Source: an uncultured bacterium
GTDB lineage: Bacteria > Zixibacteria > MSB-5A5 > CAIYYT01
DNA length: 64,000 nucleotides
Assembly: GCA_963726455.1 (NCBI GenBank)
Contig: CAVSCK010000005.1
Coordinates: forward strand, 480,001-544,000
Direction: 5' to 3'
Part shown: positions 24,072 to 37,500 of the stretch, one piece after another
Layout of the letters: each line of letters opens with the position of its first letter
Numbering within the stretch: the stretch's first letter is position 1
Translations under genes and position numbers: made by a program
Notes under the pieces: generated by a model
Told to the model about the DNA's origin: nothing
What the model saw: the letters and a program-made list of their open reading frames with translations, nothing else
Databases searched by the model: none

Positions 24072-24857
24072 TCCTCTTAACCTCGTTCAGTACTTCTCCA
24101 CGTCCGCCAGCGGCAGTTGTGTCGCGGCATCGGACTTCGCTTGCGCCGGATCGGGATGTGCTTCGAAAAACAGTCCGTCGATTCCAACCGCAATCGCGGC
24201 TTTCGTCAACGGCAGCACGAACTCGCGGCAACCACCCGACGAACCACCCTGGCCGCCCGGTTGCTGTACCGAATGCGTGGCGTCAAATACGACCGTATGG
24301 CCGGTCGCCTTCATTGTCACCAGTGAACGAAAATCAACCACGAGATCGCGATAGCCGAAGGTCGAGCCGCGTTCGGTGAGCATCACTCTGGTATTGCCGG
24401 CAGCGACGGCTTTGGCGGCAATATGACCCATATCTTCCGGCGCCAGGAACTGCCCTTTCTTGATATTGATCGCCTTGCCGGTTGCCGCAGCGGCGACAAT
24501 CAAATCTGTCTGCCGGCACAAGAACGCCGGTATTTGCAGGACGTCACAGACTTCAGCGGCGACTGCAGCTTCAGCAACTTCATGAATATCAGTCAACACC
24601 GGCAGTCCGAATCTCTCGCGAACAGATTCCAGTATTCGTAGCGCCCGGTCATCACCGATTCCTGAAAAAGACTTTCCCGACAAGCGATTGGCTTTGCGGT
24701 AGGACGATTTGAAGATCAGCGGAAATCCAAACCGTTCTGCGAGCTTGGCAAGCTTCTCCGCAGTCGTCATCACAATCTCTTCCGATTCCACCAGACAGGG
24801 TCCGGCAATCAGAAAGAGCTTCCCCCCGCCAAACTGCTTTTTGCCAATCTCAATCAT
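24046..24857 (-). CDS. kdsA: KDO 8-phosphate synthase (probable frameshift near 24095 hides the last helix)
   Basis: 'AGPCLVES', 'KANRLS', 'PAFLCRQTD', 'FDATHSVQ'; C-terminal 'EVLNEVKRIAE' in alternate frame. Confidence 0.95.
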
Positions 24858-26531
24858 GGCGTCGTTTTGATCTCTGCTTCGCTCGGTTCGGTCTCCAGTT
24901 CCAGTTCCGGCTGATTTGGATGGTCGTGGTAAGTGACCGCGGCTTTCACAAACTCACGGAACAGTGGATGGGCGGCATGGAATCGGCTCTTCAATTCGGG
25001 ATGGAATTGAACCCCGACGAACCACCGGTGACCCGCGATTTCTATGATCTCCACCAGTTTACCATCGGGTGAAACTCCGGCGAGCTTCAACCCGGCACGG
25101 GTGAGCAATTCGCGATACTTGTTGTTGAACTCGTAACGATGGCGGTGGCGTTCCGAGATTTCGCGCTGCGTGTAGGCCTCGTAGCTCTTGCTGTTTTCGT
25201 CCAGCACACAGGGGAAGGCGCCCAACCGCATAGTACCGCCCATTTCGGTTACCTCATGCTGGTCGGCCATCAGGTGAATCACCGGATGTTTCAAGTCCCG
25301 GTAGAATTCATAACTGTGCGCATCCGAAAGACCGGCGACGTTGCGCGCGTATTCAATCACCGCGCACTGCATTCCGAGGCAGATTCCGAAGAAGGGTATA
25401 TTCCGCTCGCGGACGTACCGAATTGATTCGATCTTGCCTTCAACACCGCGCTCGCCGAAACCGCCCGGAATCAACAGTCCGTCGATATTCTGCAAATAGG
25501 CCTCCGCGCCGTTGGCTTTGATATCTTCCGATGCGATCCAGACCAGATCGACCTTGACATTGTTCTCCGCTCCGGCATGAATGAAGGCCTCAATGATTGA
25601 TTTGTAGGCGTCGCGCAGATTGACATACTTGCCGCAAATCCCGATCCGGACATGCTTTTCCGGTTTCTTGATTCGCTGCACCCTGTCTGACCACTCGCTC
25701 AAATCGGGTTGTGGCGCATCCAGACCGAGGTATTCAATGATGTAATCGTCCAGCCCTTGTTTGTGATAGACGAGCGGAACTTCATAAATCGTCTCGACGT
25801 CCAGCGTCTCGATCACGTGCTTGCGGCGCGATACTGCAGAACAGGCCGATCTTTTCCTTGATAGCATCCGACAACGGCTTTACGGAGCGGCAGAGCAGCG
25901 CTTGCGGTTGAATACCGATCTCTCTTAGATCGCGCACCGAATGTTGCGTCGGTTTGGTCTTGATTTCGCCTGCTGTTTCCACCCACGGCACTAATGTCAA
26001 GTGAATGAACATCGTGCTGCCGGGGCCTTCTTCCAGAGCGATCTGGCGGGCTGCTTCGAGGAAGGGAAGTGATTCAATGTCACCGACCGTGCCGCCGACT
26101 TCGGTAATCACCACGTCATAACTGCCGTTCTTTTGCGCCAGCTTGCGAATTCGCGCCTTGATTTCGTTGGTGATATGCGGAATCACCTGTACTGTGGCTC
26201 CCAGGTAATCGCCGTGTCGTTCGCGGTTGATAACCGATAGATACACCTGACCCGCCGTGACGTTATTGTCGCGCGACAAGCTCACCCCCGTGAAACGCTC
26301 GTAATGGCCTAAATCAAGGTCGGTCTCCGCGCCATCGTCGAGGACGAAAACCTCGCCGTGCTGGAACGGGTTCATGGTGCCGGGATCGACATTGATGTAG
26401 GGATCCATCTTCTGCAGATTGACGCGCAGTCCGCGCTTGGCCAATAGCACGCCGATGGATGACGACGCTATGCCCTTTCCCAGGGAGGATACTACACCTC
26501 CCGTTACGAAAATATACCGGGCCTTCTCCAT
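24854..26531 (-). CDS. pyrG: CTP synthase (frameshift near 25825)
   Basis: '[11 protein letters not shown]', 'KTKPTQHSV' in ORF1; 'PGGFGERG', 'GICLGMQ', 'QFHPE' in ORF2. Confidence 0.96.
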
Positions 26532-28770: not shown

Positions 28771-28810
28771 AAGGGCAGATTAACACGTGCAATCACCGAG
28801 GAGGTGTAAG

Positions 28811-29263
28811 ATGAATAAACGGTTATATCGGTCGCGGCAGCACAACGTTATTGCCGGTGTCTGTGGCGGACTGGGGGAATACTTCGATGTTGACCCCGTT
28901 TTCGTACGCATCCTGGCGGTGATTCTGGTATTTGCCCATGGAATCGGACTAGTTGCCTACATCGTTGCCTGGATTGCCATGCCGAAATCGCCGCTGGTAA
29001 CGGCATCTGTCGAAACAGTGGCGAGTACGGAAACTCCAGTGGATACCCAACCGCCGGCAGAGCCGTCAGTCTGGGCCAAGTACTGGGTCGGAATCATATT
29101 GATCGGGCTGGGCGTAATCTTTCTGGCCGATCATCTTTTCTGGTGGTTTCACTGGCGTTACGTCTGGCCTATTCTGTTGATCCTCGCCGGTGCAGCGCTG
29201 ATACTAAGATCATCCACGCGTCATAAGAATAACGGAGGCATTCATGAATCCATCCAGAGTTAG
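28811..29263 (+). CDS. PspC-domain protein with LiaI/LiaF-like TM region
   Basis: 'KRLYRS..IAGVCGGLGEYFDVDP..RI'; 'GIILIGLG..WPILLIL'; GAGGAGG RBS. Confidence 0.9.
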   Translation: MNKRLYRSRQHNVIAGVCGGLGEYFDVDPVFVRILAVILVFAHGIGLVAYIVAWIAMPKSPLVTASVETVASTETPVDTQPPAEPSVWAKYWVGIILIGLGVIFLADHLFWWFHWRYVWPILLILAGAALILRSSTRHKNNGGIHESIQS

Positions 29264-30146
29264 ATGGGGCATAACCCTTATTCTCATCGGGCTGGTCTTC
29301 CTGGCCAACAATCTCGGCCAGTTGAGTTGGTGGGTGTGGTACGACCTGTTGCATCTCTGGCCGGTCTTGTTGATAGTGATTGGCCTGGAGGTCATCGTCA
29401 AGAGATCCAAGCTGCAAATTCTCGGCTACCTCTCGTCACTGATCGTGGTCGCGACTTTCGCCTATGTCGTGATCGACAACCGTGGCAATCCCGACGATGA
29501 ATACGGATCCTATCCATCGTCTCGGTCAGAGGTCAGCGTCAGTTACGAAAATCAGGCGACTGCCAATTTCAAAATCAAGTTCGATGACGGCCGGCTCTAT
29601 TTCAACACCAGTGATGACAAACTCTTCCGCGCGGTCGCCGAGAACTCCCGGCGCGATCTGCAGCTGATTCCCGAGTCATCCGGTTCGAGCAGCGACATCA
29701 CGCTTTCTCCCGGCTCGAAACATTTTCGTCGTTGGGTGAACGTCGGCTCGAATGACAATCACTGGAAATGCTACATCCGCCCCGAAGTGGCCGGAAACTA
29801 TAACCTCGATCTCGCCGGTACTGATCTTCGCTTCTTCGGACAGGATTTGAAAGTTGACAGACTGGCAATTCAGGCCGACCGTTCTGACCTGGTCGTGCGG
29901 CTGGGGAAACAACAGGCGCGTTGTGATGTAAACCTGTCGGGCGACAACACTGATCTGGATATCTATTTCCCCGACTCAGCCGGCGTGCGAATCGAAGGCA
30001 CTTATCCTTCACAGACTGATATTGACGCTTTCAAATTGACCGATCGCGGCGGCTATCTCAGCAACGACTTATACGACCGCGCCGCCGTGAATTTCACGGT
30101 CAAGACCGAATTGAAGCAAGGCAAAGTGAGGGTGAGCAGCTACTAA
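29244..30146 (+). CDS. DUF5668/LiaF-like membrane protein with extracytoplasmic beta domain
   Basis: 'WGITLILIGLVFLANNLG..LWPVLLIVIG'; overlaps pspC gene. Confidence 0.8.
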   Translation: MNPSRVRWGITLILIGLVFLANNLGQLSWWVWYDLLHLWPVLLIVIGLEVIVKRSKLQILGYLSSLIVVATFAYVVIDNRGNPDDEYGSYPSSRSEVSVSYENQATANFKIKFDDGRLYFNTSDDKLFRAVAENSRRDLQLIPESSGSSSDITLSPGSKHFRRWVNVGSNDNHWKCYIRPEVAGNYNLDLAGTDLRFFGQDLKVDRLAIQADRSDLVVRLGKQQARCDVNLSGDNTDLDIYFPDSAGVRIEGTYPSQTDIDAFKLTDRGGYLSNDLYDRAAVNFTVKTELKQGKVRVSSY

Positions 30147-30188: not shown

Positions 30189-31016
30189 TTAGCAACCGTC
30201 GCAGGGTGAGGCGCCCTCGCTGAAGATGTAACTCACGAGAAAGATCACGTCTGCAACGTCGGTTCCTCCGTCACAATTGACATCACCATTGCTACTATCC
30301 TGCGGGGCAGGTCCCGTCCCGAATATGTAATTGACCAGATAGACGGCATCAGCGATGTTGATGCTCTGCGAACCATTTACATCGCCACAGACCGCGGCAA
30401 GAGTAACGCCGGAGCACTCCGGGAAGCGGGGACGAAAGGTATAATTTTCCCAAGGGCTTTGGTAGAGACTCGAAAAGAGCCCGACCGGGTGGTTCCTCAC
30501 CGTCCAAATAGGTTCAATCGTAACTGTCTGCGGGACCAAATCCTGCAATTTGAGATAGAGGTATCCCACGAGGCGAGCAACACTTCCGAAAGTCGGCGGA
30601 ATTGAGTTGAAGCCCGCAAAGTCTACCCAGCCGACTTGGATCGAATCCCCAGATTCACTTGTCCAGGTATTCACAAAGGGTCGACTTCCGGGTGGGATTG
30701 GGCTATCAGGAGCAATCATCCACCGTGCGCCGAATCTAACTCCTGTGCCGTTCTCAGCCAAACCGACTGCAAAGCCGCCCAACTCGTAATCATTCCAAAT
30801 GTAGAACGGTATTGCGATCGAATCACCTGCCTGCATGGTATCGAGTGAGATCGTCATGGTACACCCGATCCTGAAAGTGTCGCAGACGCCTAGGTCCAGC
30901 CTTTTAATATTACCGACCGAGTCGTAATCCACATAACACGTATCCTGGGCGTTCGTGGCTGATGTCAGAAGCAAGCAACACGCAAACATGAACCACAAAG
31001 CCAATATCCGATTCAT
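30189..31016 (-). CDS. Secreted cohesin-like + dockerin protein
   Basis: Signal peptide; 'AGDSIAIPFYIWNDYELGGF'; C-terminal 'CGDVNGSQSINIAD..GDVNCDGGTDVAD..YIFSEGASPC'. Confidence 0.85.
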   Translation of the reverse strand: MNRILALWFMFACCLLLTSATNAQDTCYVDYDSVGNIKRLDLGVCDTFRIGCTMTISLDTMQAGDSIAIPFYIWNDYELGGFAVGLAENGTGVRFGARWMIAPDSPIPPGSRPFVNTWTSESGDSIQVGWVDFAGFNSIPPTFGSVARLVGYLYLKLQDLVPQTVTIEPIWTVRNHPVGLFSSLYQSPWENYTFRPRFPECSGVTLAAVCGDVNGSQSINIADAVYLVNYIFGTGPAPQDSSNGDVNCDGGTDVADVIFLVSYIFSEGASPCDGC

Positions 31017-31195
31017 CTTACCTCCCAGCTTTCAATGCTTAAGTCTTGCAGTGCCGAATATCACAGCCCTCGGCCGCTTTTCGGACGCCAATCACAGTCA
31101 GTTGACAACAGTAGCCATAATATACAAACGTTCCGTCAAATGTCAATGCCATAATCCTTTGGCTGGTCCATCCGCGGCGAGTCGATTTTGCCCCC

Positions 31196-31224
31196 TTGCT
31201 AAAATCGGACTTCGGAGCTATATT
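31196..31224 (+). promoter_or_regulatory. Sigma70 promoter of stand-alone small RNA unit
   Basis: TTGCTA-N17-TATATT. Confidence 0.7.
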
Positions 31225-31229
31225 ATCAC

Positions 31230-31416
31230 GGGATAGGAGCACGTTGGGTCGGTTGCGAAACTGAACCGCGGCCGAAACCCGCTTCCCGTTGCCAATCCCG
31301 AACGATCGTCTCCAACTCAACCAGGAGGAGGAGGAGCCGATGTTCCACACCGACGAACCTCGCACCGAGTACCCAAGCCGGTGGCTCGAAACCTCATAAT
31401 TCGAGCCACTTTTTTT
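31230..31416 (+). ncRNA. Candidate ~185-nt rod-shaped ncRNA (6S-like), containing a 19-codon sORF
   Basis: Own promoter and terminator; 5'/3' pairing GTCGGT/ACCGAC, GAAC/GTTC, CGGC/GCCG, GTTG/CAAC, GGG/CCC. Confidence 0.5.
31381..31416 (+). terminator. Intrinsic terminator
   Basis: GTGGCTCGAA..TTCGAGCCAC-TTTTTTT. Confidence 0.88.
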
Positions 31417-31607
31417 GTGCCCACGAAGCATCCCAATATCTTGCTCAGACCGAATGTCGGGTTTCTCTTCCCGTGGATTCGGAGAGGCGTGTCGAATGAG
31501 GGAAGCGAATGTTGGTGACGGCATTCGTGTGCGGCTGATACGGGACTCGGAACGCCGACCTACGGGACTACACGCCAAGCTTTTGTGAATCAGCAATGAG
31601 GGAAAAT

Positions 31608-32621
31608 CTATTTGAGCAGAATAAATAGCACCGCCGCGAGGGCAACAATCAGAATCGCAATCCACAACAGCGGGCTGATGTCGTGCTTCTTCCTGACTGG
31701 CACGGTGAATCCGACCGTGCTGCCGGCCGGTTGAGGCGGCGCCTCGGTTGTATCCGGGAACTTGCTGTGCGCGATTTGCTCGATCTGCGCTAGTTCCTTG
31801 TCGGTGCCCCAGTCGACGGTGGCGCGCCTGATCTCGTCGAAGTCCGGAATCTCTCCCTGCTCGATGACCCTGGCTATACAGACTGTGATATTATCAGAAC
31901 CACCGGCCTCATTGGCCTTGGCAATCAAAACCTGCGCCAGTTGATTAAGATCATCCGCGCCGGCATTGGCAGCTTTGAGAATCTCGGAGTCGGAGATCAT
32001 TCCGCATAAACCGTCGGAGCAAAGCAGGAACAGATCGTCCTTCTGGAATCGAATTTGCGAGATGTCGGTCTTGATCGTCGGCCTGGTTCCCAGGGCGCGG
32101 GTGATCACATTGCGATTGACGAGATTCTCCGATTCTTCCTCGGTCAAATGATGTTTTTCCATCACCTCGCTGACCCAGGAATGATCGATTGTCACGCGCC
32201 GGATATTGCCCTGGCGAATCAGATACGCCCGGCTGTCGCCGACATGGCAGATCGACACCACTCCGTTTTGAAAATGGCATGCCACCACCGTCGTGCCCAT
32301 CCCCGAACGCTCGGTTGACTCTTTCGCCACTTCGATAATGCGATGGTTGGCGACGGCAATCGCGCCGACCAGCAGTTTGCCCTCGGGTGAAATCTCCTCC
32401 GGATAAGGAAGGCCGTCAACCGCAAAGAGCTGCAGGTCCTGATCCTTAAAGATCGCCGAAATGGTTTCGACCGCCATCTCGGAGGCGACCTCGCCGGCCG
32501 CATGGCCGCCCATGCCGTCGCAGACCATGATCAGGTTTACTTCAGGGATTACCGCGTACGCGTCTTCGTTATGATCGCGTACCTTGCCGACGTCGCTGGC
32601 GCCGGCGTAAATAATTTGCAT
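31608..32621 (-). CDS. PP2C/PPM Ser/Thr phosphatase, tail-anchored
   Basis: 'RDHNED', 'CDGMGGH', 'VGDSR', 'CSDGL', 'DNIT'; C-terminal TM. Confidence 0.94.
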   Translation of the reverse strand: MQIIYAGASDVGKVRDHNEDAYAVIPEVNLIMVCDGMGGHAAGEVASEMAVETISAIFKDQDLQLFAVDGLPYPEEISPEGKLLVGAIAVANHRIIEVAKESTERSGMGTTVVACHFQNGVVSICHVGDSRAYLIRQGNIRRVTIDHSWVSEVMEKHHLTEEESENLVNRNVITRALGTRPTIKTDISQIRFQKDDLFLLCSDGLCGMISDSEILKAANAGADDLNQLAQVLIAKANEAGGSDNITVCIARVIEQGEIPDFDEIRRATVDWGTDKELAQIEQIAHSKFPDTTEAPPQPAGSTVGFTVPVRKKHDISPLLWIAILIVALAAVLFILLK

Positions 32622-36351: not shown

Positions 36352-37329
36352 CTACATGCCGTAACAGTGCGGAGCGGGTCCGCCGGCGAATATGTATTGA
36401 ATCAAATACACGACATCGGATATGTCATACGCTTGGTCACCGTTTGCGTCACCGTACCCGCCTTGATAGTTGCAGTCACTACTCCCCGGAGCTCCGTCGC
36501 ATCTCGCAACGATGCATTGAAGCGCGAAGACGGCATCAGAGATGTCAAAGGTGCCATCCATGTTCGCGTCGCCGCACGCGGTGCAACACTGATTGTGAGT
36601 CAAAACCGGAGTGTAATACGGCTTCTGATTGGTCACCAAGACGGTGCTGCCGAACGGAGCTACGTAAGAAGTGTCGTAGTCGATCAATTGTGACGGATCG
36701 CCGTTGAGGATGCGCACATTCAGTTTACAGAGCAGAGCATTGCTGAATACAGGAGGGTTAAGTCCGTCCAAAACCGCCACGAGTACTACCTGATTTGTTT
36801 CAGGATAGAATTCAGGCCATAGACTCATGACAGCGACCTGAGATCCCGCCGTGCTCACCGATGTCACTTCCACGTTATCATTCAGGTAGCCCAAGACAAT
36901 ATTCAGCCCCACAACGCCTGGAATCGTCGTTATTCGAATGGGTACTGCAATGGAATCGTTACCCGGATATCTTTCAATAGGCCAGCAATCGATTCTGATT
37001 TCTCCGCCGGTCTCGGTTGGGCAAGCAATGGGGTTTCCGCATTCAAACGGCGGGCCTGTCCAGTAACGGACGTACCGACTAAACAGAATTAAGTCCGGGG
37101 CAGCAACACCGCCACAGCCATCGATCTCTCCGCAAGTGTCGATGACAGTGCCTCCGCCAAAGAAATATTGAATGTAAAAAACTCCGTCCGTAATATCAAT
37201 TGCGCCATCATGGTCTGCATCTCCGCAACTTGCGCAAGCGGCCTTTGATTGAGCGAACGCTGTTCCGGTGACTACCAGTGAAAAAATCAGCCCCAAGGCC
37301 AACGTCAGCAACAGTACTCTGCCATTCAT
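36352..37329 (-). CDS. Secreted dockerin-cohesin-like-dockerin protein
   Basis: Signal peptide; N-terminal 'CGDADHDGAIDITD'; central 'NDSIAVPIRI..VEVTSVS'; C-terminal 'CGDANMDGTFDISD..GGPAPHC'. Confidence 0.85.
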   Translation of the reverse strand: MNGRVLLLTLALGLIFSLVVTGTAFAQSKAACASCGDADHDGAIDITDGVFYIQYFFGGGTVIDTCGEIDGCGGVAAPDLILFSRYVRYWTGPPFECGNPIACPTETGGEIRIDCWPIERYPGNDSIAVPIRITTIPGVVGLNIVLGYLNDNVEVTSVSTAGSQVAVMSLWPEFYPETNQVVLVAVLDGLNPPVFSNALLCKLNVRILNGDPSQLIDYDTSYVAPFGSTVLVTNQKPYYTPVLTHNQCCTACGDANMDGTFDISDAVFALQCIVARCDGAPGSSDCNYQGGYGDANGDQAYDISDVVYLIQYIFAGGPAPHCYGM

Positions 37330-37471
37330 GGTACCTCCCGTGGACTTCTACATGCTCGATGTCTGCCGATTGTATTCAAACCTGCCGGCAACCAGACCAG
37401 GCACCGCCCAATCCCTGAGGGCATACCCCAAAGGCATATCGAGAAATCAGCAGACTTGTCAGTGCAGAAAT

Positions 37472-37500
37472 AATATAGGGGGACAGGTCGTTTTTAGCAA
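37472..37500 (-). promoter_or_regulatory. Sigma70 promoter with structured leader
   Basis: TTGCTA-N17-TATATT; 11-bp stem in the leader. Confidence 0.65.

Follow-up and report, generated by a model that had tools for sequence, protein, structure and literature searches.

The locus

In the genome of an uncultured bacterium of the Zixibacteria (3.64 Mb in 5 contigs, rated 100% complete), a 591-base gap separates two minus-strand genes, one for a secreted protein with a dockerin domain on the upstream flank (30189-31016) and one for a PP2C phosphatase on the downstream flank (31608-32621). Within this gap, on the plus strand at 31196-31416, lies a compact unit that is almost certainly a gene for a structured non-coding RNA, and it is this unit that is analysed here; positions are those of the window, the whole 64-kb stretch of DNA under study (C5:480001-544000). 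The traits of a free-standing small RNA (sRNA) gene are found together at this site: a promoter and terminator of its own, conservation as a unit, no coding potential and variable neighbours.

The unit opens with a promoter (31196-31224, plus) made up of TTGCTA (31196-31201), a 17-base spacer and TATATT (31219-31224), with 9 of 12 matches to the consensus and a conserved -35 extension, AAAATCGGAC, which reaches 31210. It closes with an intrinsic terminator (31380-31416, plus) comprising an 11-pair stem (31380-31390/31400-31410), a 9-base loop and a run of seven T/U (31410-31416); the terminator went unreported by the promoter/terminator scan, whose loop range covers only 3-8 bases. Both signals had been called by a first-pass annotation of the window, and both were found. 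Promoter geometry and terminator together predict a transcript of ~185 nt (31230-31416, plus), which would start at about 31229-31232, 6-8 bases past the -10 hexamer, and end in the U run. Between 30900 and 31750 there are 3 promoter-like sites against 0.6 +/- 0.7 in 50 shuffles, the other two being oppositely oriented, and it is conservation, not the consensus matches of the promoter, that lifts the unit above chance as a real gene.

Conservation and range

When 41 related genomes were searched at the DNA level, the region turned up at 78-79% identity in each of the three remaining members of the genus and in 0 of 37 genomes elsewhere. In the alignment of these congeners, identity sets in a few bases ahead of the -35 box and ends past the U run of the terminator, with flanks that cannot be aligned, and this confinement of conservation to the stretch from -35 through terminator upholds the earlier description of a stand-alone RNA of ~185 nt running from promoter to terminator. 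A covariance model of the four genus sequences (R1) matched 9 of the 13 genomes of another genus (g2) over its full length, and pattern scans added 2 further sequences from a species-genome collection and 4 from metagenomes; the resulting homolog set comprises 24 sequences from three genera (g1, g2 and g5) of one Zixibacteria family. Throughout this set the promoter is held with great constancy: TTGCTAAA stands at -35 in 23 of the 24 homologs and TTGCCAAA in the remaining one, the spacer is exactly 17 bases and the -10 hexamer TAnnTT in 24/24, and the first RNA stem begins 5-10 bases past that hexamer. Judged from these sequences, the promoter is sigma-70-like and its conservation equals that of the RNA itself.

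A second covariance model (R2) takes in 130 positions of the 3' part; with only 12 pairs, it acts largely as a sequence profile. Applied to 151 class genomes, it located the RNA in 18 of the 20 other family genomes (g1 3/3, g2 13/13, g5 2/2, g3 0/1 and g4 0/1), with 1 match in the genome of the window. Of 130 genomes outside the family, 11 had weak R2 matches (E 3e-4 to 9e-3), which were taken as chance; ten of the eleven were inspected by eye (all except that in G041), and these have no promoter, mostly have no terminator and do not resemble an independent gene. The RNA was thus not found convincingly in the 130 class genomes outside the family, although distant homologs could escape so profile-like a model, and as far as searched with R2 it appears restricted to one family-level lineage of Zixibacteria. 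One congener has a second weak R2 match (G002:C493:243-377, minus; 19.3 bits, E 9.9e-4), which may be a degenerate copy or chance.

No Rfam family, RF00013 included, matches 30950-31700 at E up to 10, and none matches 7 homolog loci at E up to 1; full-text literature searches brought up no publication about small or non-coding RNAs from Zixibacteria. On these comparisons the RNA represents a new family within the familiar class of bacterial small RNAs.

Structure and invariant loops

The unit has a minimum free energy (MFE) of -67.9 kcal/mol (z -2.67; 2 of 200 shuffles fold equally well), and its fold comprises SL1 (72 nt), SL2 (45 nt), a small third hairpin and the terminator hairpin, a layout that recurs in the consensus of four congeners and in separate folds of the 24 homologs. 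The first-pass annotation had paired the two halves of the unit into one long irregular hairpin, or rod; this picture gives way to three local hairpins plus terminator, with no 5'-3' closing stem. SL1 (31229-31300, plus) is itself a long irregular hairpin with a basal stem CGGGAU/AUCCCG, an apical loop AAACUGAAC (31258-31266) and a 3' internal loop GCUUCCCGU (31281-31289). SL2 (31301-31345, plus) stands on a basal stem (G)AACGAUCG/CGAUGUU(C); in it a pyrimidine tract, UCUCC, pairs with a portion of a GGA run, GGAGGAGGAGGAG (31324-31336, plus), and the apical region ACUCAACCAGGAGGA includes a near-invariant CAGGAnGA (31322-31329). The SL3 region (31355-31373, plus) consists of a conserved GAACCUC (31355-31361), a small hairpin CUCG-CAC-CGAG (31359-31369) and then GUAC, and in the other genera CCUC(A/C)C occupies the loop of a CCGA/UCGG hairpin at this place.

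Across genera, MAFFT with RNAalifold misregistered the stems, yielding only 19-32 pairs with spurious 5'-3' pairing among them, and an alignment of 19 sequences fitted to R1 was used instead. In this R1-fitted alignment 85.6% of cells are paired. Shuffling the partners lowers this to 67.7 +/- 0.9% (0 of 500 shuffles reach the observed value), and sliding them by 1-3 columns leaves 34-45%. Changes on both sides are seen in 35 of 55 pairs, and the fold thus has the support of covariation. The helices of SL1 (1-3) are paired in 94.7, 89.5 and 78.8% of cells, with 19 of 22 pairs doubly changed, and those of SL2 (4-6) in 83.3, 91.7 and 100%; the terminator helix (9) is paired in 92.7%, with 3 of 11 pairs changed on both sides, and the inner SL3 helix (8) in 82.9%, with zero double changes. 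An outer helix around SL3 (7), paired in just 37.3% of cells, was rejected as not real. G-U pairs are frequent (columns 257-283, for example, are GU in 11/19), which identifies the plus strand as the RNA strand. When the 24 sequences were folded separately with a span limit of 85, the SL1 motif fell within a hairpin loop in 23 and CAGGA within an 8-9-base SL2 apical loop in 22, the exceptions to the latter being the genome of the window (G000), where the GGA repeat permits several registers, and G001.

The invariant letters of the cross-genus alignments fall in unpaired places. In SL1 these are CUG(G/A)ACC in the apical loop and UU(C/U)CC..GU(A/G)AC, including UUCCCGU, in the 3' internal loop; in the SL2 apical loop AGGA.GA is invariant in 19/19 sequences and preceded by C in at least 90%, with CAGGAnG present in 23 of the 24 homologs; and around SL3 GAACC(UC) and GUAC are constant, GAACC and GUA being invariant in 19/19. 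The terminator loop, ACCUCAUAA (31391-31399), holds a second exposed ACCUCA, of which CUCA is invariant in all 19 sequences of two genera and missing in the third (g5). Every lineage nevertheless exposes at least one ACCUC(A/C) loop: the terminator loop in the genus of the window, SL3 and terminator in g2, and SL3 in g5 (AAAACCUCCACA). As the 3' end of the organism's 16S rRNA reads GGAUCACCUCCUUUCU, these loops resemble the anti-Shine-Dalgarno sequence CACCUCCU. A kissing interaction between the loops of SL1 and SL2 (CUGG with CCAG), considered by eye, was dropped, being limited to 3-4 pairs and not found in all subgroups.

Coding potential

As another of its options, the first-pass annotation suggested that the unit might double as a small-protein gene, based on a 19-codon open reading frame (ORF), MFHTDEPRTEYPSRWLETS, at 31340-31399 (plus). 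The frame, its ATG at 31340 and the GGA run 4-16 bases before that ATG all exist in the sequence, and a strong Shine-Dalgarno-like run so placed in this genome is what speaks for a peptide of 19 amino acids. Against it, the ATG is TTG in all three congeners, where the frame is moreover lost after 4-5 codons through a 1-base indel; a g1-type metagenome homolog (M031) has no ORF of at least 15 codons, g2 and g5 have no start or ORF at the site, and no ORF of at least 15 codons, and hence no peptide, is common to the 24 homologs. The run is in turn peculiar to this genome: the congeners have AGGAAGAGGAAG in its place, and the other genera show no more than CAGGAnGA. The ATG belongs to the basal stem of SL2, on its 3' side (GAACGAUCG paired to CGAUGUUC), and ATG and run alike are strands of SL2 stems that vary by compensatory change (helices 4-5). 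By this comparison the GGA run forms the 3' half of SL2 and is no ribosome-binding site, and the 19-codon frame is a chance ORF, not a gene; a dual-function RNA or small-protein gene has next to no probability. A minus-strand ORF of 208 amino acids (31039-31665) has no Pfam match and overlaps a region in which 1- and 3-base indels separate close relatives, and, as the earlier annotation stated, the unit contains no credible long ORF.

Neighbouring genes and possible partners

Gene neighbourhoods vary among the genera, as expected of a free-standing gene, with a convergent aminotransferase or TPR gene, a convergent dockerin gene or a tRNA-Asn gene lying downstream. In the window, the PP2C gene is followed by an FHA-domain gene and then by an ORF of 808 amino acids that looks like a Ser/Thr kinase, a likeness judged by eye from the sequence and not by profile scan. 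Within the genus, genes for a pspC-domain protein and a LiaF-like membrane protein lie 5' of the sRNA (28787-30146, plus; L006 42-1443 in the congener G003, where the first ORF is putatively assigned); in G003 it begins 58 bases past the LiaF-like ORF, and in the genome of the window a dockerin gene intervenes. In subgroup B of g2 a tRNA-Asn(GTT) gene lies ~105-115 nt 3' of the sRNA terminator on the same strand in 7/7 complete loci (L012, L015, L016, L017, L028, L048 and L050), an eighth (L049) being cut by a contig end.

Dockerin genes recur around the sRNA. One adjoins it directly in the genome of the window (divergent) and another in G003 (convergent), the protein of the latter being 34% identical to that of the former over its full length, and in two g2 species a dockerin gene lies upstream on the same strand, with similarity confined to the dockerin domain. 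A near-consensus promoter, TTGACA-16-TATATT (11/12 matches), is found at 31146-31117 (minus), pointing towards the dockerin gene at 31016; it and the sRNA promoter are divergent, 50 bases separating their -35 boxes. Some 6 kb away, a further dockerin gene (36352-37329, minus) has a promoter like that of the sRNA (TTGCTAAAAACGAC..CTATATTAT) at 37471-37500 (minus). A relaxed form of this pattern, TTGC(T/C)AAA-N-TAnA(A/T)T, defined post hoc with the data already seen, precedes 4 protein genes genome-wide, 4/4 with dockerin domains (the one just named and those behind sites at C5:447644, C4:356475 and C4:836139). Dockerin domains occur in ~130 genes of the genome (129 by Pfam matches, 135 among 3343 rough gene calls), and the share of dockerin genes among those behind plain TTGACA consensus promoters is 23% (37/163) against 4% overall. 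None of these circumstances, whether dockerin neighbours, shared promoter type or tRNA-Asn context, yields a mechanism. Elsewhere in the window, at 24854-26531 (minus), a CTP synthase read by eye from translations is seemingly split into two ORFs, an N-terminal part of 249 aa (25782-26531, minus) and a glutamine amidotransferase part of 337 aa (24854-25867, minus), which share an 86-base overlap; a frameshift or a sequencing error could account for this.

Among possible protein partners, CsrA (PF02599; C4:301621-301773, 81.7 bits) is encoded in the order flgK - csrA - 46-codon ORF - flagellin-family gene (L018, C4:300121-303273), with fliW 2.3 kb downstream of csrA (C4:304085-304444), and this setting marks the protein, 107 aa long with a long C-terminal tail, as a CsrA of the flagellar FliW-CsrA type. 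The leader of the main flagellin gene (C4:315996) carries a hairpin, GUCGG-UAAGGAAU-CCGAC, and a Shine-Dalgarno sequence AAGGAGGA, which by sequence is the classic two-site layout of a CsrA target. The 46-codon ORF after csrA contains ACTGGACCGC (L018 1846-1855), identical to the SL1 loop motif of g2 and matching 9 of 10 letters of the loop in the window, an occurrence that is probably chance, with ~7 such 10-mers expected in the genome by our own estimate. CsrA was found in 18 of 21 family genomes; it is missing from 2 of the 19 that bear the sRNA (G017, 97% complete, and G019, 89%) and present in one of the two that do not.

Alternative explanations

A divergent 6S RNA, binding RNA polymerase as a mimic of an open promoter, had been offered as one identity for the unit. 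A length of ~185 nt fits, as do a strong promoter and near-universal presence in the three carrier genera, and the lineage is left without an assigned 6S, RF00013 having no match above cut-off in this genome or in any of the 151 class genomes. The same model, on the other hand, matches nothing in the window at gathering score and gives 0 matches in the whole genome, so that no ssrS was found elsewhere either. Covariation favours three local hairpins with neither a closing stem nor a central bubble, the RNA ends with a local terminator hairpin, and it is found in just one family of the class where a broader range would be expected of 6S; structure and range exclude 6S for this RNA in our judgement, leaving it only a very slight probability. 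RF01685 (6S-Flavo) has 0 matches in the genome, a result that carries no information here, as its control also gave none in the 14 control genomes. The only 6S-like match in the 151 class genomes (L066; G019:C18:19239-19455, minus) spans the full model length and scores 45.6 bits against a cut-off of 46.4; as none of the other 20 family genomes has a homolog of it, it may lie on a contaminant contig and is a doubtful candidate for the 6S of the lineage. Bacterial signal recognition particle RNA was set aside, since the genome has its RF00169 match elsewhere (C5:21393-21492, 66.8 bits). Nor is the unit at all likely to be a cis-acting element, be it a leader, a riboswitch-like aptamer with terminator or a 3' end processed from an adjacent gene: a structured domain followed by a terminator does resemble a transcription-attenuating leader, and the tRNA-Asn gene lies ~110 nt downstream on the same strand in every complete locus of g2 subgroup B, but the next gene downstream in the window, that for PP2C, is convergent, leaving nothing there to regulate in cis; downstream genes differ among the genera, and no Rfam riboswitch matches.

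Readings in which the invariant loops contact a protein are more probable than these. The annotation had suggested a sponge of GGA motifs, and in that form the idea is weakened: the homologs carry 3-9 GGA each, of which 1-6 are unpaired in the MFE fold, and the observed count is reached by no more than 5 of 200 dinucleotide shuffles in just 1 of the 24 (by 37 of 200 for G000 and 144 of 200 for G002), while the conspicuous run is, as noted, confined to one genome. What survives of it is a single near-invariant CAGGAnG loop in organisms that mostly encode CsrA, and with it the possibility that the SL2 apical loop is a CsrA site through which the RNA titrates, or is delivered or stabilised by, the flagellar CsrA. 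In favour of this are the near-invariance of the motif in an 8-9-base loop closed by 3 pairs in 22/24 folds; its agreement with the CsrB repeat CAGGA(U/A/C)G, placed in hairpin loops in a review (PMC7652899); the csrA gene beside flagellar genes and fliW; the two-site flagellin leader; and the base-pairing sRNAs McaS and GadY, with few GGA sites, described in that review as CsrA antagonists (PMC7652899). Set against it are a single conserved GGA site in counts ordinary for the composition, a second candidate site at the terminator base that is missing in the genus of the window, and the imperfect co-occurrence of sRNA and CsrA; moreover, the relevant part of the same source names FliW, not sRNAs, as the antagonist of FliW-type flagellar CsrA and reports FliW to be anticorrelated with the regulators that drive Csr sRNAs (PMC7652899). 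CsrA binding is on this evidence unlikely, and slightly more doubtful still is its fullest form, in which a FliW-type flagellar CsrA would, for the first time outside Proteobacteria, have an RNA as partner or antagonist, and the anti-Shine-Dalgarno-like loops of that RNA would also pair with mRNAs in the manner of McaS. A little less improbable is a structured partner or scaffold of another protein or ribonucleoprotein, with the invariant loops as protein contacts and not pairing seeds: four separate invariant loop or internal-loop motifs on freely covarying stems are common in protein-bound RNAs, and near-universality in the three genera, one match in this genome and a very strongly conserved promoter suit such a role, whereas no neighbouring protein gene is conserved across genera, a range of one family is unusual for a core ribonucleoprotein and no candidate partner emerged.

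A candidate trans-acting riboregulator

The explanation we prefer, and regard as somewhat more probable than its negation when taken as a whole, is that the unit encodes a trans-acting riboregulator of ~185 nt belonging to a new RNA family, with a promoter and terminator of its own and with predicted loops that serve as seeds for pairing with ribosome-binding sites. Invariant loops on covarying stems, a free-standing gene, changing neighbours and the lack of an Hfq match fit such a regulator; that the RNA is expressed, acts in trans and uses its loops as seeds is what we infer from these features. In outline, a housekeeping-type sRNA would be transcribed independently from the conserved sigma-70-like promoter and ended by the intrinsic terminator; its stems would be free to vary by compensatory change while four unpaired elements stay fixed, namely CUG(G/A)ACC, UUCCCGU, CAGGAnGA and one or more ACCUC(A/C) loops exposed in SL3, the terminator or both; and the C/U-rich ACCUC(A/C) loops would pair with GAGG-type ribosome-binding sites of target mRNAs and so block initiation. 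Since the 100%-complete genome has no Pfam Hfq (PF17209) match, this pairing would be Hfq-independent, as in RsaE/RoxS. Pairing with ribosome-binding sites is the mode that we take to be likeliest; by itself it is plausible and falls somewhat short of probable.

Several observations weigh against this reading. A crude target scan, in which RNAduplex energies were computed for five loop segments against positions -35..+20 of 3343 roughly called genes, gave no outstanding target beyond the antisense self-match and no enriched class, with no enrichment among the 135 dockerin genes; the best SL1-loop duplex, of 13 pairs, is about what chance would give by our own estimate. The CCUC of SL3 is partly paired in the genome of the window and its congeners, where the terminator loop alone exposes the motif, and in g5 it is the terminator loop that has no ACCUC. 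The purine-rich, invariant CAGGAnGA loop is better explained by the binding of a protein such as CsrA than by pairing with ribosome-binding sites. Finally, the covariation counts come from an alignment fitted to a model of the four closest sequences, which favours that structure, and it is for this reason that the separate folds serve as an independent check on it. GUGAGG or UGAGGU near gene starts, found in 95 genes including fliW and the neighbouring PP2C gene, was too unspecific and was not used.

Lineage-specific sRNAs without an assigned function are a common kind of find. This one offers a handle on promoter usage and Hfq-independent riboregulation in a phylum known only from metagenomes, and it corrects an attractive but wrong reading as 6S RNA or micropeptide. 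It also bears on whether FliW-type CsrA proteins have RNA ligands besides flagellin mRNA; were CsrA binding true, the FliW-CsrA-flagellin partner switch of an uncultured phylum would gain an RNA input.

Comparison with known systems

With CsrB, CsrC, RsmY and RsmZ of Gammaproteobacteria the RNA has in common that it stands alone as an sRNA, between a promoter of its own and an intrinsic terminator, in a host that encodes CsrA; its CAGGAnG hairpin loop is identical to the repeat given for CsrB in PMC7652899. It differs from them in having one conserved GGA loop in place of 5-22, with no enrichment of GGA over shuffles, in matching no Csr/Rsm family of Rfam, and in a host whose CsrA is of the FliW-type flagellar kind. 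Like 6S RNA (RF00013) it is a conserved non-coding gene of ~185 nt behind a strong promoter; unlike 6S RNA it has no end-to-end rod, closing stem, central bubble or model match, and its range is a single family. A possible double mode, in which pairing loops are combined with one or two GGA sites, would recall McaS and GadY, which are enterobacterial, unrelated in sequence and Hfq-dependent. In RsaE/RoxS of Firmicutes, C-rich loops pair with Shine-Dalgarno regions without Hfq. The present RNA is about twice as long as RsaE/RoxS, has ACCUC(A/C) in place of CCCC as its motif and shows no sequence or covariance-model similarity to them (no Rfam match), but in a host that likewise has no Pfam Hfq match it resembles them as a multi-hairpin sRNA ending in a terminator, with pyrimidine-rich loop motifs that are repeated along the molecule and extend into the terminator loop itself.

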